Program-made: the position numbers and the translations under genes | Source: a virus | Taxonomy: Duplodnaviria > Caudoviricetes | Direction: 5' to 3' (one strand) | IMG/VR virus record: IMGVR_UViG_3300047281_000067 | Location: 1-59,977 of that record | Length of the DNA: 59,977 nt | The notes under the pieces: model-generated | What the model saw: only the letters and a program-made list of their open reading frames with translations | What the model was told of the DNA's origin: nothing | The model's database searches: none | Part shown: one piece after another, positions 7,783-30,045 of the stretch | How positions within the stretch are numbered: position 1 is the first letter of the stretch | How the letters are laid out: every line of letters starts with the position of its first letter

Positions 7783-10100
7783 AAATATACGTTGTTAAAC
7801 GCAGTGGAAACAAAGAGTTACTAACTATTGAAAAATGGCAGACCCAAATCGCAAAAGTATGCGGTGGAATAGCTGATGTCAGCCAGAGCATGATTGAAAT
7901 CAAAGCTCAGCCTCACTTTTATGATGGCATCACAACACGCGAAATTGATGAAATAACTCTACGCGCCATTGTTGATTTAATTGATATGGAATCTAATCCT
8001 GATGTAGGTCATACTAATTATCAATATGTAGCGGGTCGCCAGCGTTTATCAATGTTGCGCAAGGACGTATATGGCGATTACGATGTTCCTCGTTTGTATG
8101 ACATTGTAAAAAAGAATATCGCAATCGGTCTATACACTCCTGAGCTACTTGAATGGTATACAGAAGCAGACTGGGATAAAATGGATGGTATGCTTGACCA
8201 TTCCAAAGATGAACAGTACGGTTTTGCTGCTATTGAACAACTAATTGAAAAGTATCTTGTACGCAACCGCGCAACTAAACAAACATATGAGACTCCTCAG
8301 ATTCGTTACATGGTTGCCGCTGCTACTGTCTTTCATAAAGAAGAACCTGCTGCTGCTCGTATGCGCTACATTAAGGAGTATTACAATTGTGCGTCTGATG
8401 GCTTATTTACTCTTGCTACCCCTGTGCTTGCGGGGCTTGGTACACCTACTAAACAGTTTAGCTCATGCGTTCTAATCAAAGCTGACGATAATCTAGATTC
8501 AATATTCGCATCTGGTGAAATGATGGCTAAGTATGCCAGTAAACGCGCCGGCATTGGTCTTGATATTGGTCGTTTGCGCCCACTTGGTGCTGCTATTCGC
8601 GGTGGCGAAATTATGCATACTGGCATGGTGCCCTTTCTGAAAAAATGGTTTGGTGATCTGCGCTCTTGCTCACAGGGTGGCATTCGTAATGCCTCTGCGA
8701 CAGTATTCTATCCTATCTGGCATTATCAATTTGATGATCTTATTGTATTGAAGAATAATCAAGGTACAGAAGAAACTCGTGTCCGTCACATGGACTACGG
8801 TGTTGTGCTATCTGCTTTCTTCTGGAGACGCTTTAAGAATAAAGAACAAATTACATTCTTTGATCCCAATGAAGTGCCTGATCTGTATGAAGCATTCTAT
8901 AGCAACACAACAAAATTTGAAGAATTGTATGTTGCTTATGAACAGCGTACTGACCTGCGTAAGAAGACAATGAGTGCTGAGGAAGTATTCAAGTCTGGAA
9001 TTCTTAAAGAACGCACTGACACTGGTCGGATCTATCTAGTATTCATTGACAACGTGATGAAGCAAGGCCCGTTCGATCCTGAGTATCATACAATTTACCA
9101 GAGTAACCTATGCTGTGAAATACTTTTACCTACTAAGTCCTTTAAACGTCTGGATGACAGCGATGGTCGTATCGCACTATGCACACTGGGCTCAATCAAT
9201 TGGGGCGCGTTCCGTAACCCAGAAGACATGCGCCGTGCTTGCCGTATACTGCAGCGTAGCCTCAACAACATTCTTGACTATCAAGACTTTCTTTCCATCC
9301 AGTCTAAGCTGAGTAATGATGAAATTCGCCCATTAGGAATCGGTATTACTAATCTTGCCTACTGGCACGCCAAGCGTAGTCTGATGTATGGTGAGAAAGA
9401 TGCGCTTGCTGAAGTCAAGACCTGGATGGAACATCAGGCATTCTATCTTACTGAAGCAACAGTTGAGCTTGCTAAAGAGCGCGGCGCTTGTTTGGATAGT
9501 GCTAAGACACGTTACGGTCAGGGAATCTTTCCTTGGGAACTACGTGCCACTGGCGTTAATGAACTAACTGACTTCACTCCTGACGAAGCTCTTGACTGGG
9601 AAACTCTTCGTGGTAATATGAAACAATACGGTGTGCGTAATGCTACACTGATTGCCATTGCCCCAGTAGAGTCAAGTTCAGTTGTTATCAACAGTACTAA
9701 CGGTATTGAAATGCCAATGAGTTTGATTTCAGTTAAAGAATCTAAAGCAGGCTCACTTACTCAAGTTGTACCTGAGTATCACAAACTGAAATCAAAATAC
9801 CAGCTGATGTGGGAACAAAAAGATTGCGATGGCTATTTGAAAACAGCAGCAGTATTAGCTGCGTATGTGGATCAAAGTATTTCCACTAACACATTCTACA
9901 ATCCTGCTCATTTTGAAGGTCGTAAAGTTCCTACTACTCTAATTGCTAAGAATTTGATGCAATCTCATCAGTGGGGCCTTAAAACGTTCTACTACTCATT
10001 AATTAATAAACAAGGCTCAAAAGCAGTAGATGAAGTAGCTGCTCCTTTAGAAGTAATCGACTTCGATGACGAAGAAGGTTGCGAATCCTGTAAACTCTAA
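7779..10100 (+). CDS. nrdA: class Ia ribonucleotide reductase alpha subunit
   Basis: N-terminal ATP cone (VVKRSG), QFSSC, SNLCCEI, APVESSS, KTFYY, C-terminal CESCKL. Confidence 0.97.
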   Translation: MKIYVVKRSGNKELLTIEKWQTQIAKVCGGIADVSQSMIEIKAQPHFYDGITTREIDEITLRAIVDLIDMESNPDVGHTNYQYVAGRQRLSMLRKDVYGDYDVPRLYDIVKKNIAIGLYTPELLEWYTEADWDKMDGMLDHSKDEQYGFAAIEQLIEKYLVRNRATKQTYETPQIRYMVAAATVFHKEEPAAARMRYIKEYYNCASDGLFTLATPVLAGLGTPTKQFSSCVLIKADDNLDSIFASGEMMAKYASKRAGIGLDIGRLRPLGAAIRGGEIMHTGMVPFLKKWFGDLRSCSQGGIRNASATVFYPIWHYQFDDLIVLKNNQGTEETRVRHMDYGVVLSAFFWRRFKNKEQITFFDPNEVPDLYEAFYSNTTKFEELYVAYEQRTDLRKKTMSAEEVFKSGILKERTDTGRIYLVFIDNVMKQGPFDPEYHTIYQSNLCCEILLPTKSFKRLDDSDGRIALCTLGSINWGAFRNPEDMRRACRILQRSLNNILDYQDFLSIQSKLSNDEIRPLGIGITNLAYWHAKRSLMYGEKDALAEVKTWMEHQAFYLTEATVELAKERGACLDSAKTRYGQGIFPWELRATGVNELTDFTPDEALDWETLRGNMKQYGVRNATLIAIAPVESSSVVINSTNGIEMPMSLISVKESKAGSLTQVVPEYHKLKSKYQLMWEQKDCDGYLKTAAVLAAYVDQSISTNTFYNPAHFEGRKVPTTLIAKNLMQSHQWGLKTFYYSLINKQGSKAVDEVAAPLEVIDFDDEEGCESCKL

Positions 10101-17310: not shown

Positions 17311-17694
17311 ATGGCATATTCAGACAAGGTCGTTGACCACTACGAAAACCCCCGCAACGTCGGCACCTTTTCAAAAGATGATGAGGATGTGGGCACGGGC
17401 ATGGTGGGAGCCCCGGCATGTGGTGACGTGATGAAGTTACAGATTAAAGTAGTCGATGGTATCATTACTGACGCCCGCTTTAAAACATATGGTTGCGGAA
17501 GTGCTATCGCTAGTTCCAGTTTGATTACGGAAATGGTCAAGGGAATGTCACTGGACCAAGCGACGGCTATCAAGAACAGTGAGTTAGCCGAAGAACTTGC
17601 CCTACCACCAGTTAAGATTCATTGCTCTATTTTAGCGGAAGATGCGATTAAAGCCGCAGTTGCTGATTATAGAGCCAAGCATTTAGCAGTTTGA
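17311..17694 (+). CDS. iscU: Fe-S cluster scaffold protein
   Basis: MAYSDKVVDHYENPRNVG, GAPACGD, FKTYGCGSAIASSS, LPPVKIHCS. Confidence 0.97.
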   Translation: MAYSDKVVDHYENPRNVGTFSKDDEDVGTGMVGAPACGDVMKLQIKVVDGIITDARFKTYGCGSAIASSSLITEMVKGMSLDQATAIKNSELAEELALPPVKIHCSILAEDAIKAAVADYRAKHLAV

Positions 17695-17722: not shown

Positions 17723-18706
17723 ATGAAACCATTAATATCCGTAAATTTTGTACCCGGTAGCCATGGCAATTTTCTGAAACAATTGCTGGATTTAGTTTTT
17801 GCTGAACGTAGATGGAGCAAAAGCCCAGTGACCGCGGCGGGAACATGGCATTTACACATTACTGATAAAGAATTATGTAAGAATGCCCCTCCGCAGAAAT
17901 TTCAGAAGCACCACTATTACAGAAATGCTGACGTGCTCCCCGATTTTATAGACCGCTCAAGTTGGGCGGTCTTCAGCGACCCAGCTATTAATATAACAGT
18001 AGAAACAATTCAAGAAAAGATTCTAATTAGTATGTATTTTGCTAGAGTAGGAGATGATCTTCCACTTTCTGCTATTGAAATCAGTGAATTAAATATGGAA
18101 AACTTTATATATACCTGGATTTTGAAAAATAAAGTAGATGTACCGGACTTGCCGTACTTACCATACAGATTGCACTTATTCGAAGATGTATTGCGTGATG
18201 TGTATCAATTTAAAAATACAGTCCCGAATGAAATAGATGTGATTAAATTTTGGTCAAAGGATATAACAAGAATTGATCGTCATCTTGACGCTAGTGCTAA
18301 ATTTTTGGAATCATCAAAACATACTATCTACCACTTTAGAATGATTTGGTTATACAATCATATCGATTGCTTAAATGCAATTAGAGAAATAAGTAATCAA
18401 TTTAATATTCCTATTCTAGTGAGCGATGACGAAATTAGAACTACCATTGATTTTTTCAAGTCTACTATTAAAGAGTTACCTAACATTGATCTTGCCCAAC
18501 AAAAATTTGATGCCATTATAAGCGGCATAGATGTTACTCTACTTGATTTGGATATTAATAGCAAAATATTTCTGTGGTTGTTTTTACAACATCATTATTC
18601 TCTCTTGGATCAATCGGCTATTACTGAGTGGCCTAGTACCTCAATAGAAATGAGAGACAAAATATCATCAGCATTAAATACATCACTTACAGGAGAAGTA
18701 CAATGA
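17723..18706 (+). CDS. hypothetical protein
   Basis: 327 aa AT-rich ORF; N-terminal PGSHGNFL loop similar to the ORF at 35898. Confidence 0.65.
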   Translation: MKPLISVNFVPGSHGNFLKQLLDLVFAERRWSKSPVTAAGTWHLHITDKELCKNAPPQKFQKHHYYRNADVLPDFIDRSSWAVFSDPAINITVETIQEKILISMYFARVGDDLPLSAIEISELNMENFIYTWILKNKVDVPDLPYLPYRLHLFEDVLRDVYQFKNTVPNEIDVIKFWSKDITRIDRHLDASAKFLESSKHTIYHFRMIWLYNHIDCLNAIREISNQFNIPILVSDDEIRTTIDFFKSTIKELPNIDLAQQKFDAIISGIDVTLLDLDINSKIFLWLFLQHHYSLLDQSAITEWPSTSIEMRDKISSALNTSLTGEVQ

Positions 18707-18951
18707 GCAACGAGCAAGACAAAATCAAGCATAGCAAACGTATGCTAAAAGATGAAAACACTGTAAAAAAGCAAGTTGATATTGCTAAGCAACACGGCAC
18801 TCCAATTGAAGATCCGCACAAGTTTGCTAAGCGACATGCAATGACATGCGGTGATTCTAATTGCGTTATGTGCGGTAATCCACGAAAGTTCTTTAAAGAG
18901 ACTACGATCCAAGAACAACGATTCGATCAAACGAAGAATTGGGAAGATTGA
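18703..18951 (+). CDS. hypothetical protein with CxxxxCxxC motif
   Basis: GGAG RBS; CGDSNCVMCGNPR. Confidence 0.7.
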   Translation: MSNEQDKIKHSKRMLKDENTVKKQVDIAKQHGTPIEDPHKFAKRHAMTCGDSNCVMCGNPRKFFKETTIQEQRFDQTKNWED

Positions 18952-18972
18952 AAAATAAAAGTAGCAAATCGC

Positions 18973-19001
18973 TTGACAACAATGCGATGTGGTGCTATAA
19001 T
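18973..19001 (+). promoter_or_regulatory. sigma70 promoter of the RNA island
   Basis: TTGACA-17 nt-TATAAT with TG extended -10. Confidence 0.85.
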
Positions 19002-19079
19002 ACATACATGAACTAGAGAAAGAGCTAAAAAAGTAGCTTAATTTCTAGTATTTTTAAACCAGGACTAAATAGATATACT

Positions 19080-19250
19080 ATGATGAATTTTAACTGTCAA
19101 TCGCTGAAACATGCAGGCTTATGGTCACCCGTGACGATTGCCATGCTGTCTGCCTTTGAGGGGAATTATTCAACAGCACCGACAAGTATTCGCGGATCGA
19201 ATGATCAGGGCAGAATGAAACAGGGGTTCATAGAAGGATGGGATGATTAG
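19080..19250 (+). CDS. putative attenuator leader peptide (56 aa, contains all 20 amino acids)
   Basis: MMNFNCQSLKHAGLWSPVTIAMLSAFEGNYSTAPTSIRGSNDQGRMKQGFIEGWDD*; stop codon at the apex of a hairpin that competes with the terminator. Confidence 0.55.
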   Translation: MMNFNCQSLKHAGLWSPVTIAMLSAFEGNYSTAPTSIRGSNDQGRMKQGFIEGWDD

Positions 19251-19277
19251 TTAATCACACATCTTACAAGATTTATG

Positions 19278-19317
19278 AAACCCCTGGAAACGAAAGTTCT
19301 CAGGGGTTTTGTTTTTG
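19278..19317 (+). terminator. intrinsic terminator with overlapping antiterminator (19221-19286)
   Basis: aaacccctg-gaaacgaaagttct-caggggttt followed by a T-rich tract; upstream caggggttcataga can pair with tttatgaaacccctg instead. Confidence 0.75.
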
Positions 19318-19353
19318 TGTTGTAAAAGTACAACATTAAATTTTTGACAGTAA

Positions 19354-19503
19354 ATGAATTTTATGATACAATTAGATAAGAAAGAAAAATCTGATTGGCT
19401 CAAGGAGAATACTCTAACTTCTGAACAGTTCAAGCAATTGATTCTTCAGAAGGTAGAGCGTAACAAGAGTCAATCGGCTCAAGCTAGAAAACAACTAGCA
19501 TAA
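19354..19503 (+). CDS. small hypothetical protein
   Basis: 49 aa ORF MNFMIQLDKKEKSDWLKENT...; overlaps a sigma70-like promoter. Confidence 0.4.
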   Translation: MNFMIQLDKKEKSDWLKENTLTSEQFKQLILQKVERNKSQSAQARKQLA

Positions 19504-19749
19504 AAAATTAGTGTGGATTTAGAGCAGTAACCCTGCCCAGGAAACGAGGTCCTGATAGCGCACTATAAACATGCTGTAAACGGGCGGACAGAATACATGA
19601 ACGTGTGGTGAGAACGCATTAGTAAGACTTCTGGGTAGAGTATTAACTCTATCATATCCTCTAGTAATAGAGGGTATTCTAAAACATACTCCACAGGGGG
19701 AGGGTTTCGCCAGCAAAGAGCAAGACTTTGCGAGTGTGTTTTAGAATAT

Positions 19750-19827
19750 TGGGGATTCGCCTAGCTTGGCCTAAGGCAACGGTCTTTGAAATCGTCATCA
19801 TTGGTTCGAATCCAATATCCCCTGCCA
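19750..19827 (+). tRNA. tRNA-Gln(UUG)
   Basis: cloverleaf, loop CTTTGAA, GTTCGAATC, CCA. Confidence 0.9.
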
Positions 19828-19831
19828 GTAT

Positions 19832-19892
19832 TAGGATCCGTTCAGCAAACTTAAAAAATTCAACTTGTAATTGAAAAATAAGGATCCTGTTA
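19832..19892 (+). ncRNA. Y-like RNA copy 1 with Thr(UGU) anticodon stem-loop
   Basis: aggatcc/ggatcct terminal helix + TTCAGCAA; ttcaa-CTTGTAA-ttgaa. Confidence 0.7.
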
Positions 19893-19897
19893 TATTC

Positions 19898-19972
19898 ACT
19901 CAGTTCGTCTATCGGTAAGGACGACAGCCTTTCAAGTTGTAAAGACGGGTTCGATTCCCGTACTGAGTACCA
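19898..19972 (+). tRNA. tRNA-Glu(UUC)
   Basis: cloverleaf, loop CTTTCAA, CCA. Confidence 0.92.
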
Positions 19973-19979
19973 ATCAAAC

Positions 19980-20054
19980 GCGCCATTAGTATAATGGATA
20001 ATATACGAGCCTACGAAGTTCGGGATGGTGGTTCGATTCCATCATGGCGCACCA
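19980..20054 (+). tRNA. tRNA-Arg(ACG)
   Basis: cloverleaf, loop CTACGAA, CCA. Confidence 0.9.
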
Positions 20055-20058
20055 GTTT

Positions 20059-20126
20059 TAGGATGCATCCTGCAAAATCAAATCAATTCAAAACTTTTAT
20101 CTTTGAAAAGAAACTGCATCCTGTTA
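20059..20126 (+). ncRNA. Y-like RNA copy 2 with Lys(UUU)-like stem-loop
   Basis: aggatgca/tgcatcct helix + CTGCAA; ttcaaa-aCTTTTATc-tttgaa. Confidence 0.65.
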
Positions 20127-20132
20127 TATAAT

Positions 20133-20206
20133 ATCCGCGTAGCACAAAAGTAGAGCGTCCGGCTGATAACCGGGAGACGAAGGAGCGTTACCTTCCGTGG
20201 ATACCA
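20133..20206 (+). tRNA. tRNA-Ile(GAU), atypical T loop
   Basis: loop CTGATAA; T loop AGCGTTA instead of TTCRANY; CCA. Confidence 0.75.
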
Positions 20207-20225
20207 ATCAATTAGACTACTTAGG

Positions 20226-20297
20226 TGTGGCCTTAGTGTAGCGGTAGCACCAGACACTGTGAATGTCTTAGTACGGGTTCGACCCCCGTAGGTCACC
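20226..20297 (+). tRNA. tRNA-His(GUG), no encoded CCA, embedded in an extended flanking stem
   Basis: loop CTGTGAA; flanks gactacttagg / cctaagtagtt pair. Confidence 0.85.
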
Positions 20298-20319
20298 CCT
20301 AAGTAGTTTGAAAAATAAA

Positions 20320-20395
20320 GCCCCGGTGATGGAATGGTATACATGCTTGTCTTAGAAACAAGATCCTAGGAGTTCGAGTCTCCTCTGGGGCACCA
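20320..20395 (+). tRNA. tRNA-Leu(UAG) with short variable loop
   Basis: loop CTTAGAA, 76 nt, CCA. Confidence 0.85.
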
Positions 20396-20404
20396 TCATT
20401 AATT

Positions 20405-20478
20405 GCTCTTATAGGTAAATGGAATACTGACACTTTGGTATAGTGTAGTTGGAAGTTCGATTCTTCCTAAGAGCACCA
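20405..20478 (+). tRNA. tRNA-Thr(GGU)
   Basis: loop TTGGTAT, CCA. Confidence 0.88.
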
Positions 20479-20487
20479 AGATAAGTA

Positions 20488-20552
20488 GTGACTATAGTTT
20501 AAGCGAACAAGTTTAAATGTACTAGGTGCAGGTGTCAAGCCCTGCTAGTTGC
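20488..20552 (+). pseudogene. degenerate tRNA-like element
   Basis: 7 bp acceptor gtgacta/tagttgc and T-like stem gcagg/cctgc; no clear anticodon arm or CCA. Confidence 0.4.
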
Positions 20553-20559
20553 GAACATT

Positions 20560-20634
20560 GGATGTATAGCACAGCGGTAGTGCATTCGCTTCATACGCGA
20601 CAGGTCAGTAGTTCAAATCTACTTACATCCACCA
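20560..20634 (+). tRNA. tRNA-CAU (Met or Ile2)
   Basis: loop TTCATAC, CCA. Confidence 0.87.
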
Positions 20635-20641
20635 AACATAT

Positions 20642-20715
20642 GCGACCATAGTTAAATGGTAGAATTAGACTTTGCCAAAGTCTGGACACGGGTTCGATTC
20701 CCGTTGGTCGCTCCA
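20642..20715 (+). tRNA. tRNA-Gly(GCC)
   Basis: loop TTGCCAA, U73, CCA. Confidence 0.92.
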
Positions 20716-20723
20716 ACTTATAA

Positions 20724-20797
20724 CTCCGATTGGTGAAATGGAATCACTCTTGGTTTGGGACCAAGGAGCGCAAGTTCGATTCTTGCATCGGAGACCA
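20724..20797 (+). tRNA. tRNA-Pro(UGG)
   Basis: loop TTTGGGA, CCA. Confidence 0.9.
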
Positions 20798-20808
20798 AGT
20801 TTTAAAAT

Positions 20809-20886
20809 GCCCCTGTGGACAAATTGGCAAAGTCGCTTCTCTCAAAAGGAAGAGTTCTCTCGGTTCAAGTCCGAGCAGGGGTACCA
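20809..20886 (+). tRNA. tRNA-Leu(CAA) with short variable loop
   Basis: loop CTCAAAA, 78 nt, CCA. Confidence 0.85.
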
Positions 20887-20891
20887 AGTTT

Positions 20892-21011
20892 CCCGTCTTA
20901 GTGTAGTGGTTAGCACACGTATAAAGGTCATCCTGTCAAGGATGCAGTCAGCAATATACAACATTCCATTCTAAGGACGAAACGGTGGTTCGAATCCATC
21001 AGACGGGGCCA
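20892..21011 (+). ncRNA. tRNA body whose anticodon arm is replaced by a circularly permuted Y-like module
   Basis: acceptor cccgtct/agacggg+GCCA, normal D and T arms; insert catcct-gtca-aggatg-cagTCAGCAA at 20929-20954. Confidence 0.7.
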
Positions 21012-21079
21012 ATTACGGTAGTCGGAGTCATGACCCTTTGCGTTTTCATGAGATGCAAAGCGAGCTACCACCAACAAAT

Positions 21080-21171
21080 GGAGAGTAATGCAGCGGGGAT
21101 GGTCCTGCGACTGGCCTTGAAAACCAGGTTCTCAGAAATGGGATGGGGTTCGACTCCTCTGCTCTCCGCCA
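21080..21171 (+). tRNA. tRNA-Ser(UGA) with 8/4 acceptor/T-stem fold
   Basis: ggagagta/tgctctcc 8 bp, gggg/cctc 4 bp T stem, long variable arm, G73, CCA. Confidence 0.75.
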
Positions 21172-21573
21172 AAATATCCTTAAGTTAAGCGGGGCTGTAT
21201 ACACCCTTGCCAATGTTAGTAACGTACTATGCGATGAGTACCTTAAGGGCCAAGTTATGTCATAGTGTAATGAGAATGCACGGGAGGCCCACATAAGTCT
21301 TTTTAAGTAGAGCGGTGGAATAACTTTCAGGTACGGTAAAAACCCGTAACGACAAACAAGTTTTGAGATAGACGTAGGAGTCGAGTCGCAAGTAGCGGTG
21401 CAGCAAGAGAAGCACGTGTTTAACGTGAAAGATGCAAGACCTCCTCCATACGAGACAAACTACTGAGTCCACTAACAAGGATAGGTAGCCTCTCAAAAAC
21501 CTACCACAAGAAGCATATCAAATTTGATTGATGCGTGAGATATTGATAAATAGATCATACAAAGGAAAATATC

Positions 21574-21876
21574 ATGACAACCCCAACCCCAACCCCAAAC
21601 TCAAACTCAAACCCAATGACAAAAACTACCACAATCACTTGGGGCTCGATAGCTGATCAGGAACATATTGGTATCGAACAAGCCAGGGATATAAAACTGA
21701 TAGAAATGTCAAAACTCGGCAAAACTGATGGCACCGCACTCAACATCAGCCCTGAATGTACACGCCGGTATTGGGCTGATTTGGCATCTGCTGAAGAATA
21801 TGCTACATTTATCAATGAAATCTCGCTATCCTTTAATATTGCACCTGCTTCGATTGTAATTGACGACATTGTATAA
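21574..21876 (+). CDS. hypothetical protein
   Basis: AAGGA RBS, 100 aa, low-complexity PT/NS N-terminus. Confidence 0.65.
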   Translation: MTTPTPTPNSNSNPMTKTTTITWGSIADQEHIGIEQARDIKLIEMSKLGKTDGTALNISPECTRRYWADLASAEEYATFINEISLSFNIAPASIVIDDIV

Positions 21877-21917
21877 CTCACTAGTTATATACATAGCATT
21901 AGATTGATAAAAAGTAA

Positions 21918-23351
21918 GTGGCAAATTTAATTTTATGGAACACATTAAATCACAATGTATTTTTAGTTAGACCAGTCGGTGCCCATCAAATTGCACAATG
22001 GTTGATAAAACACGGATACACGGTAAAGGTAATTGATTTTTGTAGTTCTATTTCTACTGATGATTTAGTTGAGATAACACGAAAATTTATTGATAACTCT
22101 ACTATTGCGGTGGGAGTTAGTTCTACATTTTGGAACCTGTTTGACCCGATTACAATAACATCTAGTTCTAGATATCCACAGGGTAATAAATTCACAGCAA
22201 TCGATCCAGACTGGGTTAACTCAGGTAGACGAAAAATTGAAAGCTTATATCCTGAATTAAAATGGTTATTGGGAGGGGCATCCTCACAAGCTATCAGTAT
22301 GCATGATTGGATAAAATTTCACGGTCATGCTGAGGATTCAATATTAAAATTTTTAGATGAAAAAAGTGGCAAAAATATCGCTAGGACACCATTTACAATA
22401 CAATCCATGGAGTGGTCATACGGTGAGGGATTAGGTATACTCCCTCATGAAGTATTGGGTATTGAACTTGGTCGCGGATGTCAATTTAAATGTGGATTTT
22501 GTAGATATCCTCTATTGGGTAAAAAGAAAAATTCTTATTTACGAAATTTTAACTTAGTCAAGCACGAATTAATCCAGAATTATGAAAAATTTGGTGTTAC
22601 ACGCTATTCATATTTAGACGATACAGTGAATGAAAGCTCTGAGAAAATAGAAATTATGGCTGATATCGCGCAGTCACTCCCGTTTAAATTAGAATGGGTA
22701 GGGTATGGTAGATTAGATTTAATTGGTTCAAATCGTCCATCGATACAAACTCTTAAAGATTCGGGGCTTCGTAGTATGTTTTTTGGTATAGAGACATTCC
22801 ACCCAACCGCAAGTAAAGCAATTGGAAAAGCTTGGAATGGTAAACACGGTAAAGAATTTTTGCTCGAACTCAAGGAAATATGGGGTAAAGAAATCAACTT
22901 TCATACTAACTTCATAGTTGGGCTCCCGGGCGAATCAGAAATTGATATAGATAATACAATTCAATGGTGTATTGATAATGATATCCCATCATGGAAGTTT
23001 GGCGCATTAAATATTTCAATTAGACAAGATTTACTGTTTAAGAGTGTATTTGATGAAAACTACGCAGAGTATGGGTATAAATTCACCAATCCATTGGATG
23101 ATTCTTATTGGGAAAATGAATACTGGAATGCTCAGACAGCAGTGGATAAGCAACTATCTGTTTCTCGTCAAAATAAGAATAGTCGCCCATCAGATTTCGC
23201 TTTAGCGAGTCTCGCTGGTCTTGGTTATTCAATAGATGAACTCATTAATACACCTCAGCACTCACTGCCATACGGTGATATGTTTAATAAGCGACAATCA
23301 CACATAGACCAATACGTTCATTATCAAAAAAATATTGCTAATGCGTACTAA
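21918..23351 (+). CDS. B12-binding radical SAM protein (class B-like)
   Basis: ELGRGCQFKCGFC CxxxCxxC, FGIET, FIVGLPGE; N-terminal Rossmann-like domain. Confidence 0.88.
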   Translation: MANLILWNTLNHNVFLVRPVGAHQIAQWLIKHGYTVKVIDFCSSISTDDLVEITRKFIDNSTIAVGVSSTFWNLFDPITITSSSRYPQGNKFTAIDPDWVNSGRRKIESLYPELKWLLGGASSQAISMHDWIKFHGHAEDSILKFLDEKSGKNIARTPFTIQSMEWSYGEGLGILPHEVLGIELGRGCQFKCGFCRYPLLGKKKNSYLRNFNLVKHELIQNYEKFGVTRYSYLDDTVNESSEKIEIMADIAQSLPFKLEWVGYGRLDLIGSNRPSIQTLKDSGLRSMFFGIETFHPTASKAIGKAWNGKHGKEFLLELKEIWGKEINFHTNFIVGLPGESEIDIDNTIQWCIDNDIPSWKFGALNISIRQDLLFKSVFDENYAEYGYKFTNPLDDSYWENEYWNAQTAVDKQLSVSRQNKNSRPSDFALASLAGLGYSIDELINTPQHSLPYGDMFNKRQSHIDQYVHYQKNIANAY

Positions 23352-23379
23352 GTCCTAGACAATTGAAAAAGTTAATAAC

Positions 23380-23454
23380 GGGTCTTTGGTGCAACGGATA
23401 GCATACGAGTCTTCGAAACTCATGACGCAAGTTCGATTCTTGCAGGACCCACCA
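23380..23454 (+). tRNA. tRNA-Arg(UCG)
   Basis: loop CTTCGAA, CCA. Confidence 0.9.
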
Positions 23455-23497
23455 AAACAATAGTTAAATACATATAACATAACCGCAGGAGAAAATC

Positions 23498-24058
23498 ATG
23501 TCCGTATTAGCACTAGATATCACAGGAGTTCCCAGACAGTGGATCTCTACTGATGACGCAATTACCTATCACGCAAAAAATGCAGTAGCATGGGCGCTAG
23601 GTGATATTGTGGCTAAATATCGTGGTGGTATACAAGAAGATGGTACACAGAGTTATCTGGAAACAACTAGTATTATTGCCATTAAAGGACACGGGTTCAA
23701 TCCGCACAAGCACGGCAAAGTGGTGCTGACTAACAAGACATTGTTTGGTCGCGATAGAAACGTATGTGCGTACTGCGGTAAACTATTTGCTAATCACTAT
23801 CATTTGTCTCGTGATCATATTCACCCTAAATTTAAAGGTGGAGAAAATACCTGGATGAATGTAGTTACATCTTGTAAAAGTTGTAACAGTGAAAAGGGAC
23901 ACAAGACGCTGAAAGAATTCGGCAAGGAACTGTTATATGCTCCGTATGTTCCCTCTCATTATGAAAATATGATTCTTCAACACAGGAACATTCTAGCTGA
24001 CCAAATGGAATATTTGTTATCAGGTGTTCCGAAAAATTCTAGAATCTGGTTAAATTAA
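23498..24058 (+). CDS. HNH endonuclease
   Basis: RDRNVCAYCG, SRDHIHP..GG, NVVTSCKSCNSEK. Confidence 0.9.
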   Translation: MSVLALDITGVPRQWISTDDAITYHAKNAVAWALGDIVAKYRGGIQEDGTQSYLETTSIIAIKGHGFNPHKHGKVVLTNKTLFGRDRNVCAYCGKLFANHYHLSRDHIHPKFKGGENTWMNVVTSCKSCNSEKGHKTLKEFGKELLYAPYVPSHYENMILQHRNILADQMEYLLSGVPKNSRIWLN

Positions 24059-24121
24059 ATTTCAATCATATTTACAAATGATAAATAACTATAGCAGCAA
24101 ATAACAACGCTGCTACCAATC

Positions 24122-24196
24122 GCCCGATTGGCTCAGGGGTAGAGCAACCGCCTTGTAAGCGGTAGGTCGTCTGTTCGAATCAGACATTGGGCACCA
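24122..24196 (+). tRNA. tRNA-Thr(UGU)
   Basis: loop CTTGTAA, CCA. Confidence 0.93.
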
Positions 24197-24203
24197 AATT
24201 TAT

Positions 24204-24278
24204 TCCCTAATAGCTCAGTGGTAGAGTAGTTGACTGTTAATCAATTGGTCCGTGGTTCGAGCCCACGTTGGGGAGCCA
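24204..24278 (+). tRNA. tRNA-Asn(GUU)
   Basis: loop CTGTTAA, GCCA. Confidence 0.95.
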
Positions 24279-24321
24279 AATATCTTAGTCAGCAATCGAA
24301 TATTATACACATAATACTATA

Positions 24322-25101
24322 ATGGATTCCGAATACACTATCAAAGAACTGTCTTACTTAAAAGCGAATCGATTATTGCCGCAAGTTCATAATACCCCCA
24401 GCCGGGTAGAAAAATTTTCGGGATATGATTCAGCTGGGTTATTTTCTGATAATTTACAAAAGCAAGATGCTTTGTGGAGATATAGGACCAAAGAAGTTAC
24501 TTATGTATTAAACGATCAATCATATCGTGCCCCGGAATGGAATTCTATTGATTGGAAAAATTCAGCGGTGATATTAGGTTGCTCTAATGTATTTGGGGTT
24601 GGATTAGCAGAAGATGAAACTATCAGTTATCAGTTATCATTATTGCTGAATCGGCCGGTTATCAATTTAGGTGTTGGTAGCTCCGGGATGTCTTTTGCAA
24701 TGCAAAATTCAGTTTTACTTAATAAAAACTTTCCTACTCCATGGGCTGTTATCAACATATGGTCGGATCCATTTCGCATTCATGAATTCATTGACAACAG
24801 ACTTATTTCACATTATACTGCTATGAGTTCTATATCAGGGAATTCTAACTTTAGTAAAAGTTGGGGTTCCTCAGAAATAAATCCAGAAATGTACAGTTAT
24901 TTTGCGTGTAAGGCTACTGAAGCAATTTGGTCATCAAAAACTAAATACTTGTCATACTCACATTGGGCTCCCCTAGACAGTAGTTCAATTAAAAGACTGC
25001 CCTTTATCCCCGGAGATTTGGCCCGAGATTTGGCTCACCCAGGATCAAAAATGGCTGTTGCGGTTGCAGAAGTCTTAGCTACAGCCCTAACAAAGACTTG
25101 A
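24322..25101 (+). CDS. SGNH-hydrolase-like protein
   Basis: LGCSNVFGVG, INLGVGSSG, C-terminal ARDLAHPG (DxxHP). Confidence 0.65.
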   Translation: MDSEYTIKELSYLKANRLLPQVHNTPSRVEKFSGYDSAGLFSDNLQKQDALWRYRTKEVTYVLNDQSYRAPEWNSIDWKNSAVILGCSNVFGVGLAEDETISYQLSLLLNRPVINLGVGSSGMSFAMQNSVLLNKNFPTPWAVINIWSDPFRIHEFIDNRLISHYTAMSSISGNSNFSKSWGSSEINPEMYSYFACKATEAIWSSKTKYLSYSHWAPLDSSSIKRLPFIPGDLARDLAHPGSKMAVAVAEVLATALTKT

Positions 25102-25455
25102 CATTAAATCGTTTCTTTGTTATAATAGATACAAGAAACAAAATTCTGGCGTTCGTATAATGGATAATACAGGGGATTTCTACTCCCTAAATAGCAGTTC
25201 GATTCTGTTACGCCGGACCAAATTAAAACACATTGTCCTAGGCTGTGACCTAGTCCATCAGAAGTCCAAAGAGACAGAAGCAGTGTGTTTTAATTTGGTT
25301 CTGTTGTTTAAATACAACGAGAAAAGAGTTGACATTAAAGCACAATGGTGCTATAATAGATACTTAGATTGATAGAAGACTTCTTTCAACAGGCTCTTAA
25401 AAGTTTGAAGAAAGTTAAAAAAGAAGTTGACAATTAATCAAAACGGTGTTATAAT
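25098..25455 (+). promoter_or_regulatory. three sigma70 promoters (-35 at 25098, 25329, 25427) with boxA-like elements downstream
   Basis: TTGACA-17-TATAAT three times; gctcttaaaa (~25393) and gttcattaaaaa (~25494). Confidence 0.8.
25146..25220 (+). tRNA. tRNA-Arg(UCU)
   Basis: loop TTTCTAC, CCA overlapping a conserved hairpin. Confidence 0.85.
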
Positions 25456-25875
25456 AGACACATAGCAACAAACGATAGAGTTAGTTGCGTAAAGTTCATT
25501 AAAAATTTACAAGTATAGATTTCTTGCTGAGACAACACTAAACGATTATGTAAAGTGATAACAGTCCGCAATGCTGTGAAGCAAAGCGTAGCGAGAAGTT
25601 ATATTAAAACATATTGTATCACAGGATCGTGCATTGGTAGTTCAAGCAGGGGAAATGATGTAGTGTGTTTCAATATAACAAAGAAGTTATAGTAAAACAT
25701 ACTACACCGTGGGGGCTACGAACCACATAAAATAAATAAGTAGGAAAAGTAGTATGTTTTACTATAAGTTATATTTCAGTATATTACTTGCCTGAGCGTA
25801 AAACTCGTGGTAAACTACAAAAGACAGAGGGTTCGAATCCCTGGGACTGGTAGTGTATTGAAATATAACACATAT

Positions 25876-25950
25876 GTACATGAGCCCGAAGATTGAGGGT
25901 GCTGACTGAAACTCAGTGAAAGGCGATTGAAATGATACCCATGTACGCCG
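25876..25950 (+). pseudogene. degenerate tRNA-Phe(GAA)-like element
   Basis: gtacatg/catgtac acceptor, gctga-CTGAAAC-tcagt arm; T arm degenerate; ends GCCG. Confidence 0.45.
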
Positions 25951-25955
25951 AATAT

Positions 25956-26040
25956 GGAGATGAAGCATCAATGGTGATGCAGTGGACTGTAAATCCGCCG
26001 CTTAACAGCACGCTTGGTTCGATCCCAAGAATCTCCACCA
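25956..26040 (+). tRNA. tRNA-Tyr(GUA)
   Basis: loop CTGTAAA, long variable arm, CCA. Confidence 0.9.
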
Positions 26041-26182
26041 AGAGCAGCGATGGGTTACATCATCAGTATGAGCAGCAAGGTACCTAGGTAAATCCTTGGG
26101 CGAGCAATAGTACAAACACAATGTAACAGGCGATAGTGATCTATCATGGGCGGAGTCCTCAAAACGCTGTCCACCAAATTTC

Positions 26183-26257
26183 GACGCATTCGTCTAATGG
26201 TTAGGACACCAGGTTTTCATCCTGGGAACAGCGGTTCAATTCCGCTATGCGTTACCA
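26183..26257 (+). tRNA. tRNA-Glu(UUC)
   Basis: loop TTTTCAT, CCA. Confidence 0.92.
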
Positions 26258-26259
26258 AG

Positions 26260-26920
26260 TTTAGTAGTCGGTCAGAAGGCTGATAATTTATGAGTTGAAG
26301 CTCATAAGCTACTTTTTTATTTCGGAGACTGAAACTTATTTTGGTGCAGCGGTTGCTGGAGGCGGCCTGTCTGTTCGAGGATAAGCGGATAAAGTGGACG
26401 GCATATAGGTAAGTGACTAGGCGAGGACGGTAACAGTCCTTTGCGCTGAAACCGACCGCCCGTATGTAGGCTGTCTCCATCTTTTACTAAGACAATACTG
26501 AGTAAGATGAGTATCAAGAATCAAGTGGAAAGCAAGAGCCACAAAGTAAACGCTAGTCATCCTGGTTCCTCGGTGACACAATGCAGTGATACACAGCAGA
26601 AAAAAAGCGGGGTAAGAGTCCCCACGTAGAGGATGCCACTAATACTAAGACAATACTGAGTAAGATGAGTAGATGGATACGAGCCGTAGGCGACTGCGGT
26701 CATCACAGCAATGTGACAAACGATAAGCAAAGTCGGTCCAGTAGGGGTATGAAAAGTATTGTTGGCGGTGATGTTGCTGAAGGACAGAAGCTTATGACTC
26801 CACGACACTCTGTGGTGATCACAGGCGCCGTGTAATCCTTCCCTAATTTTGCGGTAGCCCCGCAGACGACTCAGTACTTGGTCGTAACATCATGTACCCA
26901 TTAGGTGAGAAGCCTATCAT
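26260..26920 (+). ncRNA. candidate large structured ncRNA (unidentified)
   Basis: ~660 nt GC-elevated gap between tRNAs with no credible ORF; 29 nt direct repeat at 26485-26513 and 26643-26671. Confidence 0.45.
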
Positions 26921-26925
26921 TATTT

Positions 26926-27000
26926 GGGGGATTGGCGTAATTGGTAACGCAGTAGCTTTGCAAGCTTCAGTCAAGAGTTCGAATCTCTTATCCTCCACCA
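26926..27000 (+). tRNA. tRNA-Ala(UGC)
   Basis: G3-U70, loop TTTGCAA, CCA. Confidence 0.92.
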
Positions 27001-27006
27001 GAACAT

Positions 27007-27081
27007 ACTCAGTTCGACTATCGGTTAGGTCAGGATACTTTCAATTTCCAGAGAGGGGTTCGACTCCCCTACTGAGTACCA
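27007..27081 (+). tRNA. tRNA-Glu(UUC)
   Basis: loop CTTTCAA, CCA. Confidence 0.88.
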
Positions 27082-27089
27082 AGAATTTA

Positions 27090-27164
27090 GCGGCATTCAT
27101 ATAACGGTCATTATCTCGGATTGTCTATCCGAAGACGGGAGTTCGACTCTCCCATGTCGCGCCA
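27090..27164 (+). tRNA. tRNA-Asp(GUC)
   Basis: loop TTGTCTA, GCCA. Confidence 0.88.
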
Positions 27165-27171
27165 AGTTTAT

Positions 27172-27249
27172 CTGTGTGTGAGAAAGTCCGGTTAATCTAC
27201 TCGCCTTGGAAGTGAGAAATCGTAGGTTCGAATCCTACTACACAGACCA
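27172..27249 (+). tRNA. tRNA-Pro(UGG)
   Basis: loop CTTGGAA, CCA. Confidence 0.87.
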
Positions 27250-27254
27250 TATAT

Positions 27255-27329
27255 GCCGTAGTAGTCCTCGGGGAGGGCAACTGATTGTCTATCAGTACCA
27301 GGCGAGTTCGAGTCTCGTCTACGGCGCCA
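27255..27329 (+). tRNA. tRNA-Asp(GUC)
   Basis: loop TTGTCTA, GCCA. Confidence 0.87.
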
Positions 27330-27336
27330 AGTTTAT

Positions 27337-27412
27337 TCCTCAGTAGCTCAGTTGGTAGAGTACAGCACTGTTAATGCTGGTGTCAGTGGTTCGAGCCCAC
27401 TCTGAGGAGCCA
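27337..27412 (+). tRNA. tRNA-Asn(GUU)
   Basis: loop CTGTTAA, GCCA. Confidence 0.94.
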
Positions 27413-27480
27413 AGTTAAGTTGTTATAGTGAGTCGCTATGCGATAAACTTTAAGTAGAGATTATAACAACTCATTAGTTT

Positions 27481-27539
27481 TAGGATGCGTTCAGCAAATA
27501 AAAAAATTCAACTTTTAATTGAAAAATAAGCATCCTGTT
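27481..27539 (+). ncRNA. Y-like RNA copy 3 with Lys(UUU) anticodon stem-loop
   Basis: aggatgc/gcatcct helix + GTTCAGCAA; ttcaa-CTTTTAA-ttgaa. Confidence 0.72.
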
Positions 27540-27546
27540 GTATTAA

Positions 27547-27620
27547 GTCTCTCTGGTGTAATGGCAGCACCGCGGTCTCCAAAACCGTCAGTCTAGGTTC
27601 GAATCCTAGGGGGGGCGCCA
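27547..27620 (+). tRNA. tRNA-Trp(CCA)
   Basis: loop CTCCAAA, GCCA. Confidence 0.92.
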
Positions 27621-27677
27621 AGTATAAAAATAAAGAGTAAGTATACATGTACTAAATATGTGTATAGCAAAGAGTTT

Positions 27678-27754
27678 GCCCCTATAGCACAATTGGTTGG
27701 TGCGTTCGACTCATAATCGAGAGGCTACTGGTTCAAGTCCAGTTGGGGGCACCA
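27678..27754 (+). tRNA. tRNA-CAU (Ile2 or Met)
   Basis: loop CTCATAA, CCA. Confidence 0.9.
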
Positions 27755-27760
27755 AGTTAA

Positions 27761-27834
27761 GCGGGATTCGTAAAATGGCATTACCTTAGATTTCCAATCT
27801 AAAGTCAACAGTTCGATTCTGTTATCCCGCTCCA
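27761..27834 (+). tRNA. tRNA-Gly(UCC)
   Basis: loop TTTCCAA, U73, CCA. Confidence 0.9.
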
Positions 27835-27907
27835 GAGTTAAGATGTTACCCATTTGGGTTGATGTCAATGAATAAAAGTAGTATAATAACTACTAGTTAG
27901 AAACAAT

Positions 27908-27991
27908 GCGAGAGTGGTGGAACGGTATACACAGCAGACTTAAAATCTGCCGCCTAACAGCTTGCGGGTTCGAATCCCGCCTCTCGCACCA
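27908..27991 (+). tRNA. tRNA-Leu(UAA)
   Basis: loop CTTAAAA, long variable arm, CCA. Confidence 0.95.
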
Positions 27992-27997
27992 AGAATC

Positions 27998-28089
27998 GGA
28001 AGCGTGGCCGAGTGGCCGAAGGCAACTCCTTGCTAAGGAGTCGACCCCTTTAAACGGGTCCGTGAGTTCGAATCTCACCGCTTCCTCCA
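27998..28089 (+). tRNA. tRNA-Ser(GCU)
   Basis: loop TTGCTAA, long variable arm, CCA. Confidence 0.93.
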
Positions 28090-28121
28090 AACACTCACAA
28101 TCATTAACACAAGGAAACACA

Positions 28122-28286
28122 ATGAAACCCACAAAGACTTTCAAACTGACAAAACGTACAAAGACAATCATGGCTCTAATTGGCTTTGCCGATCAAAGCC
28201 AGCGCAATGCGTTCAAGAATATGATGGTTCAAGCGCAGTTGGCCAGTGAAGTACGACCAGCAAAAGATAAGTCAGATCGTAAGTAA
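28122..28286 (+). CDS. small basic hypothetical protein
   Basis: AAGGA RBS; MKPTKTFKLTKRTKT...; the longer track ORF runs through tRNAs. Confidence 0.65.
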   Translation: MKPTKTFKLTKRTKTIMALIGFADQSQRNAFKNMMVQAQLASEVRPAKDKSDRK

Positions 28287-28292
28287 ATAAAT

Positions 28293-28368
28293 GTACGTGT
28301 GTCCTGAATGGTTAGGGAGCGGATTGCAAATCCGTATTATGCAGGTTCGAGTCCTGTCACGTACTCCA
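28293..28368 (+). tRNA. tRNA-Cys(GCA)
   Basis: loop TTGCAAA, U73, CCA. Confidence 0.92.
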
Positions 28369-28375
28369 AATAAAC

Positions 28376-28451: not shown

Positions 28452-28456
28452 AATAA

Positions 28457-29463: not shown

Positions 29464-29475
29464 TATTATCGGTTT

Positions 29476-29596: not shown

Positions 29597-29601
29597 TATA
29601 A

Positions 29602-30043: not shown

Positions 30044-30045
30044 TA

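Follow-up and report, generated by a model that had tools for sequence, protein, structure and literature searches.

A leader ORF encoding all 20 amino acids and a terminator/antiterminator switch mark the 5' edge of tRNA islands in huge freshwater phages, consistent with ribosome-mediated attenuation

What might a short open reading frame (ORF) that encodes every one of the 20 amino acids, and ends beside a transcription terminator, be doing at the head of a phage tRNA island? The window, by which we mean the whole 59,977-nt stretch analysed, comes from a virus of the Caudoviricetes (IMG/VR record IMGVR_UViG_3300047281_000067) and carries a tRNA-Gln gene at 19750-19827 followed by 40 more tRNA genes up to 37112, all on the plus strand (+), as are the other features described here. 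Ahead of them lies a predicted sigma-70-type promoter, P1 (18973-19001; TTGACA-17-TATAAT with a TG before the -10 hexamer, 12/12 consensus matches), at the position (18973) where an earlier note on this DNA had placed a promoter. P1 is followed by a predicted 5' UTR hairpin (19012-19049), which still forms in relatives with differing sequence, and by the invariant 5' UTR motif CCAGGACTAAATA...ACTATGA (19059-19083), which includes an AGGA Shine-Dalgarno-like core and the start codon. The leader ORF (19080-19250) has 56 codons and a TAG stop; the earlier note had counted all 20 amino acids within its first 42 codons, and Asp-42 is indeed the 20th to appear. The last nine codons constitute the 5' strand of a predicted antiterminator hairpin (19221-19286), the 3' strand of which is the 5' arm of an intrinsic terminator (19275-19316) composed of a stem, a GAAA loop and the U-tract UUUUGUUUUU. 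The Shine-Dalgarno signal, described before as weak, proved to be an AGGA at 19061-19064, 15 nt 5' of the ATG. Because this spacing is long (14-15 nt for the leader versus 6-10 nt in other genes of the same phage), efficient ribosome loading on the leader has to be assumed.

Searching with the 5' UTR motif, we found the module in at least 120 viral contigs, the carriers being a family of huge freshwater phages. The motif occurs as a single exact copy per genome in five of five large records and is identical in all nine loci recovered via protein similarity, and of the 92 distinct upstream regions of the family, 84 have a site with at least 10 of 12 consensus matches at the P1 position, the match being perfect in 15. 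The earlier note had named ORF length, codon diversity and pairing as the properties to compare among relatives. With respect to length, the leader ORF is uninterrupted in 123/123 instances with sufficient sequence and spans 43-59 codons. The module occupies a fixed position at the 5' edge of the tRNA island: all 61 loci have a tRNA gene no more than 2 kb downstream, and the tRNA tally around these loci amounts to 1269 downstream, all on the same strand, versus none in 719 kb of upstream sequence. The genes upstream of the module vary from phage to phage, so none of them is usable as a rate control shared between loci.

Database searches placed neither the leader nor its surroundings in a described family. 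The cultured-phage collection gave no match by blastn of 18700-19750 or by tblastn of the leader peptide (E up to 1), and the leader peptide and the downstream ORF2 (see below) returned no Pfam family and no significant PHROG family. Rfam scans of 18500-20000 and 19490-19760 yielded nothing near the gathering score except tRNAs, and neither the leader nor the conserved structured RNA downstream of it (element 2, see below) matched a covariance model of the T-box or of any other curated RNA family. A 22.7-bit match to an Rfam 5' UTR family was dismissed, since the cut-off of that family is 88 bits. The motif is also found on two contigs of metagenome-assembled genomes; binning of phage contigs is unreliable, and no host is named from them. 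RNA-library contigs from two studies overlap the leader, DNA carry-over being possible: one of 380 nt spans 18855-19234, and another of 603 nt, from a relative, corresponds to 19037-19233 joined to 19318-19550 with a divergent middle. These contigs carry no information on transcript ends, strand or level, and the parts that they leave uncovered are uninformative.

A complete amino-acid set in the single ORF of the window is not remarkable by itself, given that it is seen in 7.0% of 56-aa windows cut from long ORFs of these phages and, among 2373 ORFs of 43-59 aa outside the family, in 50 (2.1%). The significance of the set lies instead in the family-wide counts. Among 80 distinct leader peptides (43-59 aa), 74 contain all 20 amino acids and the remaining six lack exactly one each, versus 22.8 +/- 3.4 of 80 (maximum 33) under a column-shuffle null. 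The set is likewise complete in 42 of 52 representatives at 50% identity, peptides of 41-44 aa among them, and in 19 of 21 protein-search clusters, and none of 69 neighbouring small ORFs has all 20. Rare residues are mostly present once (Cys in 77/80 peptides, Trp in 76/80, His in 74/80) and tend to reappear when displaced. Where Cys is missing from its usual column it is found elsewhere in 15 of 17 peptides, versus a second Cys in 0/63 peptides with the usual one; the corresponding figures are 7/7 versus 4/73 for Trp and 7/7 versus 6/73 for His, and the single Cys is spread over seven different alignment columns. The diversity that the earlier note had seen in one ORF is thus kept in relatives by relocation of rare residues. 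We conclude that the complete amino-acid set is under selection, and selection on such a set acts through translation.

The choice of codons extends this pattern. We compared 88 distinct leader coding sequences with synonymous resampling, and at most one of 500 simulations reached the observed values for any measure (0-1/500). Both Leu boxes are used in 84/88 sequences (56.6 +/- 4.0 expected), both Ser boxes in 88/88 (77.9 expected), both Arg boxes in 73/88 (52.7 expected) and AUH together with AUA in 78/88 (54.4 expected), and a leader contains 36.8 distinct codons versus 33.0 after resampling. An internal Met is encoded in 87/88. In the window, all leader codons except ATA and TAT are readable by a phage tRNA under permissive wobble rules. 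Little downstream sequence is available for comparing a missing amino acid with a missing island tRNA, and the sole informative leader, L124, is a counter-example: it lacks Cys, yet its island has a tRNA-Cys. The position of the codon that completes the set is not significant in single sequences (median shuffle p ~0.2). In 72 of 74 peptides this codon precedes the antiterminator, an arrangement that fits attenuation. The gap is most commonly 8-10 nt, which is tight, at the limit of what a stalled ribosome would leave free.

The earlier note had also claimed that the 3' part of the ORF pairs with downstream sequence so as to place the TAG at the apex of a hairpin, and that this hairpin excludes the terminator. 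Both claims hold in the window. The segment 19221-19286 folds as a single extended hairpin, CAGGGGUUCAUAGA... paired with ...UUUAUGAAACCCCUG, in which the stop codon UAG (19248-19250) runs from the final base of the stem into the apical loop, and the terminator and the antiterminator are mutually exclusive because AAACCCCUG is common to both. Pairing is conserved as well. Of 91 distinct modules, 85 have a terminator (a hairpin with a U-run), which mostly begins its 5' arm 22-28 nt past the stop codon, and in 69 of these 85 the 5' arm can pair over at least 8 nt with upstream sequence (median z -3.0). The stop codon lies within the antiterminator in every class. From plain MAFFT alignments RNAalifold recovered eight antiterminator pairs for one class but none for the other, and no pairs from the alignment of UTR plus ORF, because register shifts between the classes broke the alignment columns. 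We therefore specified the structure by hand and counted pairs on alignments. Counted in this way, 85.3% of aligned cells are paired in the short class and 87.1% in the long class, versus 27-59% with the partners slid, and the covariation scores of 0.149 and 0.150 exceed those of shuffles (0.107 and 0.097, respectively; 0/500 reach them), with compensatory pairs such as one position that is AU in 15 sequences and GC in 15. The classes differ in which structure is favoured: the antiterminator is the stabler in 35/35 long-class modules (-26.9 versus -19.8 kcal/mol), and it is stronger in only 12/50 short-class modules, the terminator being part of the equilibrium fold in 45/50. An attenuator model of the short class thus requires kinetic, co-transcriptional folding.

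The module accordingly unites an ORF under selection as a translated frame, an intrinsic terminator, an overlapping and exclusive antiterminator, and functionally linked genes (tRNAs) downstream. We propose, with a probability of about two in three, that it works as a ribosome-mediated transcription attenuator: full translation of the leader would lead to termination, and a shortage of any one aminoacyl-tRNA to read-through. In such a mechanism P1 would be transcribed and a ribosome would load onto the leader. An unimpeded ribosome would reach the stop codon and occupy the antiterminator, covering its entire 5' strand in the short class and its inner two helices in the long class; the terminator arms would then pair with each other and transcription would stop at about 19316. 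A ribosome delayed at any codon upstream of the antiterminator would instead allow the antiterminator to form first, and RNA polymerase would continue into ORF2, a structured RNA and the tRNA genes. Ribosome position would thus decide termination, and read-through would answer to translation of the leader. The leader would call on each of the 20 elongator aminoacyl-tRNAs, and on several isoacceptor families, rather than on one repeated codon, and with one codon per amino acid its sensitivity should be far below that of the codon runs in his and trp leaders. Whether the module, present in single copy, reports completeness of translation as such, with a leader that requires every elongator aminoacyl-tRNA (both codon boxes of Leu, Ser and Arg and the AUA codon included), so that an unfinished leader would lead to read-through from P1 into ORF2, the structured RNA and a near-complete phage tRNA set, is a narrower proposition that we regard as evenly poised. 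The physiological trigger would presumably be a shortage of tRNA, arising for example from mismatched codon usage, phage-induced decay or host defences that cleave tRNAs. The analysis turned up nothing that bears on the decoys of which the earlier note spoke.

Whether the module gates the island depends on what follows the terminator. The promoter-like site that the earlier note had marked at 19344 is there, and we call it P2 (19344-19372; TTGACA-17-TACAAT, 11/12 matches). Sites of this kind (at least 10/12 matches, at most 120 nt past the terminator) are present in 56 of 74 modules, and since a near-consensus promoter thus follows the terminator, the tRNAs may be made irrespective of the attenuator. 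ORF2 (19354-19503) encodes a conserved protein of about 50 aa and has its ATG in the P2 spacer, which separates the -35 from the -10 hexamer. Across the family this ATG lies 10 nt after the start of the -35 in 39/43 cases and precedes the end of the -10 in 43/43, and because it sits inside P2, the ORF2 start codon can be transcribed only from upstream of P2. Between the attenuator and the first tRNA lies a conserved structured RNA, element 2 (19518-19694; core AACGGGCGGACAG), which is found in 73 of 74 modules with compensatory changes at 20 of 26 predicted pairs. In modules without ORF2 and P2 the terminator is followed directly by element 2 and the tRNAs. Apart from P1, no strong promoter-like site precedes the first tRNA in 17 of 74 modules. 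The modules without P2 and the position of the ORF2 start soften the doubt that P2 raises, and gating of the tRNA island is the arrangement that we favour.

Three other explanations have to be weighed against attenuation. It is improbable that the P1-ORF-terminator unit is simply an independent small gene, its product a peptide of 43-59 aa or a short, stable RNA that has its own role, with the island running from P2 and the alternative hairpin acting as a 3'-end stability element. P2 in its 56 modules and the terminator favoured thermodynamically in the short class fit such a gene, as do the conserved peptide blocks (e.g. SIRG and KH.GLW), which attenuation leaves unexplained, and a dN/dS close to the value for a genuine small protein encoded next to it (0.55-0.59 for the leader versus 0.45 for ORF2; as a coding test for the leader this ratio is non-discriminating). 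However, a protein function accounts neither for selection of one of each amino acid with relocation nor for the spread over codon boxes, the covarying hairpin specifically sequesters the 5' arm of the terminator and holds the stop codon, 17 of the 74 modules lack P2, and the module is strictly bound to tRNA islands even though the upstream genes vary. Far less credible still is a non-coding RNA, conserved for its structure alone, in which the open frame is incidental and never translated. It would suit the invariant 5' UTR motif, the several conserved helices, the long Shine-Dalgarno spacing and a synonymous divergence below that of the neighbouring ORF, but the frame is open in all 123 instances even though indels set the length classes apart, completeness of the set and relocation of residues depend on the frame and cannot be yielded by RNA structure, and no Rfam family matches.

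The remaining explanation retains the sensing of translation and differs in the output, which might be ORF2 only, the processing or stability of the structured RNA, or a leader RNA acting in trans. An ORF2 start that only read-through RNA can reach and the near-universal element 2 point in this direction, and attenuator RNAs acting in trans have been described, as for rnTrpL in the available excerpts of PMC6614838 and PMC7968998. Modules that lack both ORF2 and P2, and so lead straight to element 2 and the tRNAs, argue for the tRNA genes as the output instead, and we consider this explanation unlikely.

Attenuation of the tRNA island would resemble known systems in part only. In the amino-acid operon attenuators of enterobacteria (trp, his, leu, thr, ilv and pheA), with leaders of 14-32 codons, the position of the ribosome at the end of the leader picks the structure, and full translation leads to termination. 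The phage module shares with them a translated short leader and an intrinsic terminator whose 5' arm can instead enter an alternative hairpin. It differs in the length of the leader (43-59 codons), in a stop codon that lies within the antiterminator rather than before it, in the tRNAs rather than biosynthetic enzymes encoded downstream, and in its codons, of which there is about one for every amino acid, distributed among isoacceptor boxes. The clustered regulatory codons of the classical attenuator are absent, no leader having a codon run, and the phage leader is thus a variant rather than a member of that class. No clear 1:2 anti-antiterminator is defined either, so that an untranslated phage leader would read through. 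The T-box riboswitch binds one specific uncharged tRNA directly, with no ribosome or ORF; it likewise ties read-through to tRNA charging by a terminator/antiterminator switch, whereas the phage module has a leader ORF and no T-box match in Rfam. At pyrBI and pyrE, a ribosome close to RNA polymerase translates into the terminator and prevents its formation. Read-through is there set, as in our proposal, by how closely the leading ribosome trails the polymerase, but the phage ORF ends 24 nt short of the terminator arm, and termination should there be promoted by a ribosome that follows closely. Attenuators that respond to general translation stress by stalling, for example those of P. aeruginosa armZ/MexXY, B. 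subtilis vmlR and bmrCD, and msrD, resemble the proposal in their signal: according to the available excerpts of PMC13041342, PMC9226507 and 10.1101/2021.11.29.470318, a ribosome stalled on a short leader relieves a terminator and the signal is impaired elongation rather than one amino acid. Unlike the phage leader, those leaders, as the same excerpts present them, answer antibiotic-bound ribosomes at particular peptide or codon contexts and control resistance factors, not tRNA genes, and a complete amino-acid set is not known in them.

The known leader-peptide attenuators, to our knowledge, all report one or a few amino acids and control biosynthetic or resistance genes. A full-text literature search, with supplements and subscription-only papers outside its scope, returned no all-amino-acid leader and no attenuator at a phage tRNA island. 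If our proposal holds, no leader-peptide system before this module would have sensed aminoacyl-tRNA supply in general, and phage tRNA islands would have their first described regulatory logic. A completeness sensor would amount to closed-loop control of translation supply by the phage, and to a general alarm for host tRNA-cleaving defences regardless of the tRNA hit. Why phages carry tRNAs is debated, the main ideas in the available excerpts of PMC10264068, PMC11555353 and PMC12409363 being codon compensation and escape from tRNA-cleaving defences; a sensor of this kind would render the question testable. The module is compact (~310 nt), could be transferred to reporter or cell-free systems and may serve synthetic biology as a readout of translation capacity. 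The family signal also supplies a search rule, that of a short ORF with a complete amino-acid set ending in a terminator switch.

Two further pairings concern the 5' part of the leader. The invariant UTR motif gave a sole recurrent duplex with the rest of the leader, CCAGG:CCUGG (-9.8 kcal/mol versus -7.5 kcal/mol for shuffled queries), which is too weak to be taken as a functional pairing. A hairpin within the leader ORF (19113-19153), with the Trp codon in its 5' strand, is a tentative candidate for a pause or anti-antiterminator structure. Its folding energy is no better than that of shuffles (median z -0.5), and the helix at the Trp codon recurs in relatives with other sequences (UGGCUA/UAGCCA, GGUCU/AGACC and UGUGGU/ACCACA).

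The window, a 59,977-base piece of a viral contig taken from a public collection of viruses, has a GC content of 40% and carries every long ORF and all 40 tRNA genes (19750-37112) on the + strand. At the 5' edge of this tRNA island, also on the + strand, sequence matching places a promoter (P1, 18973-19001) with a perfect TTGACA-17-TATAAT and a TG extension. It is followed by a leader ORF of 56 codons (19080-19250) and, by sequence and fold, a terminator with a GAAA-capped stem and a U-tract (19275-19316). Folding predicts an alternative hairpin (19221-19286) in which the last nine ORF codons pair with the terminator 5' arm and UAG lies at the apex, and a second promoter-like site (P2) matches by sequence at 19344-19372. 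An earlier note had proposed that these parts form an attenuator gating the tRNA island, and we found each where it had placed them. Its further claims also stood: the 20th distinct amino acid is reached at codon 42, the alternative hairpin is exclusive with the terminator, whose 5' arm it uses, and the Shine-Dalgarno signal is weak. We locate this signal, AGGA, 15 nt before the leader ATG as against 6-10 nt in other genes of this phage.

A protein search revealed 21 clusters of 52-57 residues resembling the leader peptide, a scan of viral contigs gave eight loci with leader peptide similarity, and in a DNA alignment of relatives conservation extends over the whole module, in which one 5' UTR motif, CCAGGACTAAATA..ACTATGA (19059-19083), is invariant. 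At least 120 viral contigs carry this motif (up to 524 kb among those listed); in each of five large records (three rated complete) its exact form is single-copy per genome. The cultured phages of the phage collection gave no match to the module by DNA or to the leader by peptide. The ORF is complete in 123 of 129 motif instances (a count that includes the window twice and a few contigs twice), the other six being cut by the sequence end, and the peptides span 43-59 residues; ORF length is one of three properties, along with codon diversity and pairing, that the earlier note had proposed to follow in relatives, and all three held up. A promoter scoring at least 10/12 occupies the P1 position in 84 of 92 distinct upstream regions. 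The UTR motif is better conserved than promoter or ORF and stays invariant even where peptide identity falls to about 50%; it contains the AGGA, 14-15 nt before the ATG, and pairs recurrently only through a 5-bp CCAGG:CCUGG. The motif also occurs in two contigs binned as bacterial MAGs, L130 (2702-2725, Hyphomonadaceae) and L131 (2892-2915, Neisseriaceae), which are probably phage contigs caught in bacterial bins.

Taken alone, the window ORF is unremarkable: of 56-residue windows cut from long ORFs of these phages 7.0% have the complete set of 20, as do 50 of 2373 (2.1%) other ORFs with 43-59 codons. The case against chance rests on the relatives. All 20 amino acids are found in 74 of 80 distinct leader peptides, and each of the other six is short of a single one (three of Val, two of Cys and one of Asp). 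The expectation from 2000 shuffles of residues within alignment columns is 22.8 +/- 3.4 complete peptides, and the maximum 33. The excess arises because rare residues relocate. When Cys is absent from its usual column it appears elsewhere in 15/17 peptides, with a second Cys in 0/63 that have the usual one, and seven different columns host the single Cys. Likewise, peptides without the usual Trp, His or Asp carry it elsewhere in 7/7, 7/7 and 15/16 cases, respectively, against extra copies in 4/73, 6/73 and 13/64 of the others. The set is complete in 19 of the 21 protein-search clusters, only one of which is common to the contig set. When 1.84 billion representatives at 50% identity were searched with a profile, 52 proteins matched at E up to 0.001. 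With twelve N-terminally extended ones trimmed to the family's Met, 42 are complete (the shortest at 41 residues), seven miss one residue and three miss two; the incomplete ones include one fragment and another with an aberrant C-terminus. By contrast, a neighbouring small ORF of similar length has the complete set in 0/69 cases. These counts come from related sequences, not independent events, against which the best safeguards are the pattern of relocation and the representatives at 50% identity. We conclude that the leader's amino-acid set is under selection.

The codons themselves point to tRNA species, rather than amino acids only, as the quantity sampled. When synonymous codons were resampled according to codon usage in these phages, the observed values were reached in 0-1 of 500 simulations, although relatedness of the sequences inflates all of these figures: of 88 distinct coding sequences, both Leu boxes are present in 84 (resampled 56.6 +/- 4.0), both Ser boxes in 88 (77.9 +/- 2.8), both Arg boxes in 73 (52.7 +/- 3.9), and AUH together with AUA in 78 (54.4 +/- 3.8). 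Distinct codons number 36.8 per leader, compared with 33.0 +/- 0.2. An internal Met is present in 87/88, and thus the elongator tRNA-Met is sampled too. Under permissive wobble rules, the phage tRNAs cover all window leader codons except ATA and TAT; ATA could be served by one of two CAU tRNAs, if modified. UAA is the leader stop codon in 84/88 coding sequences. In the islands of two relatives, ARAGORN predicts a tRNA with anticodon UUA, which reads the UAA stop (L007, 5343-5415; L008, 4297-4369).

Of 91 distinct modules, 85 have a matching hairpin with a U-run after the leader ORF, its 5' arm mostly starting 22-28 nt past the stop. When the RNA is folded as before synthesis of the terminator 3' arm, the 5' arm pairs upstream over at least 8 nt in 69/85 modules (median 9, versus 5.6 with shuffled upstream sequence; median z -3.0). 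In leaders of 51-59 codons (long class) the hairpin is a stack of three helices, and the stop codon falls within the apical loop or next to it; in those of 43-50 codons (short class) it is the middle helix whose 5' strand ends in the stop codon (for example ...CCGGGGACUAGGUAA). Scored on alignments against structures that we specified, 85.3% of cells are paired in the short class (slid controls 27-59%) and 87.1% in the long class (31-54%), with covariation of 0.149 (shuffles 0.107 +/- 0.008) and 0.150 (0.097 +/- 0.007), reached by 0/500 shuffles in either class. Because the structures were derived from these same sequences, the compensatory pairs weigh more than the slid controls; the short class has, among others, AU 13 / GC 7 / GU 6 and AU 15 / GC 15, and those of the long class fall in its outer and apical helices. 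The antiterminator is predicted to be more stable than the terminator in 35/35 long-class modules (-26.9 vs -19.8 kcal/mol) but in only 12/50 of the short class (-14.9 vs -17.3 kcal/mol), which must therefore depend on co-transcriptional folding order, as the trp attenuator is usually described to do. The set-completing codon lies upstream of the antiterminator 5' strand in 72/74 peptides, the two exceptions being folds with a spurious long-range partner; the gap, most often 8-10 nt, roughly matches the stretch that a ribosome stalled there would not cover, but it is tight. The position of this codon is not significant when sequences are taken singly (median shuffle p about 0.2), and a hairpin at the Trp codon recurs with differing sequences at energies no better than shuffles. 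RNA-library contigs of two studies overlap the leader, with DNA carry-over possible and contigs being blind to ends and levels; one, from a relative, joins across the terminator region and is likewise silent on ends or levels.

A tRNA gene lies 316-1540 nt past the leader stop in 61/61 loci with at least 2 kb of downstream sequence. All 1269 downstream tRNAs are on the module's strand, and none lies upstream in 719 kb. The gene directly upstream of P1 varies between phages (loci L002-L129), and module and island thus seem to travel together while the neighbouring genes vary. Within 120 nt after the terminator, 56/74 modules have a P2-type site (at least 10/12), and 17/74 lack any such site before the first tRNA. 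Most modules also carry ORF2 (19354-19503), a conserved ORF of about 50 codons between terminator and first tRNA with the motif ..SDK.DW..H.LTKEQ..QLI..K..RAK.Y (19344-19503 with P2) and no Pfam or significant PHROG family. Its ATG lies between the P2 -35 and -10 hexamers, exactly 10 nt after the -35 start in 39/43, and before the -10 hexamer ends in 43/43; hence RNA started at P2 cannot encode ORF2, only RNA from P1 can, making ORF2 a candidate product of read-through alone. P2 weakens the proposed gating, tempered by the modules without such a site and by the ORF2 start position. In addition, 73/74 modules contain a conserved structured RNA, element 2 (19518-19694, extending towards 19745), at the same place after the attenuator and ahead of the first tRNA. 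Its core is AACGGGCGGACAG, and two tight hairpins and CUAAAACA come after it; RNAalifold finds compensatory changes at 20/26 predicted pairs, and Rfam has no match.

We favour, at a probability of roughly 0.65, a ribosome-mediated transcription attenuator. A ribosome finishing the leader on time would cause termination, as it would cover, at the stop codon, the whole antiterminator 5' strand (short class) or the two inner helices (long class), judging from ribosome footprint sizes; one held at any codon would let the antiterminator form and polymerase continue. The long Shine-Dalgarno spacing speaks against this reading. Nor does a pure set-of-amino-acids constraint explain the conservation of the peptide blocks SIRG and KH.GLW, or the dN/dS, which at 0.55-0.59 is near the 0.45 of ORF2; synonymous divergence is lower in the leader (0.83 vs 1.28), which suggests overlapping RNA constraints. 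A self-contained small gene is unlikely in our view. We are equally doubtful of a translation sensor with another output, for example a leader RNA acting in trans or ORF2 alone. That the module is a non-coding RNA whose frame is incidental is very improbable, being hard to square with frame-dependent selection.

The favoured attenuator would work like classical leader-peptide attenuators and shares with them the intact leader ORF, the intrinsic terminator and the antiterminator exclusive with it, but lacks the codon run that defines them. Like antibiotic-sensing stalling attenuators, it would report general elongation trouble. Rfam scans matched no T-box or other family to the leader region, and searches of openly accessible full texts turned up neither an all-amino-acid leader nor an attenuator at a phage tRNA island. 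With one codon per amino acid, the response would be mainly to severe tRNA loss and less to mild starvation, which fits the idea that the tRNAs of phages are a response to tRNA cleavage by host defences or to tRNA decay in infection (for context, PMC10264068, PMC11555353 and PMC12409363).

The window also encodes a ribonucleotide reductase large subunit, a NifU/IscU-like iron-sulfur scaffold, a DUF2828/DUF7788 protein and, inside its tRNA island, two radical SAM proteins, of which one has a SPASM domain; these five genes jointly occupy 7779-10100, 17311-17694, 21918-23351, 30492-31835 and 42109-43524. At 33645-33740, ARAGORN reports a 96-nt tRNA-like gene of undetermined type with a four-base anticodon.
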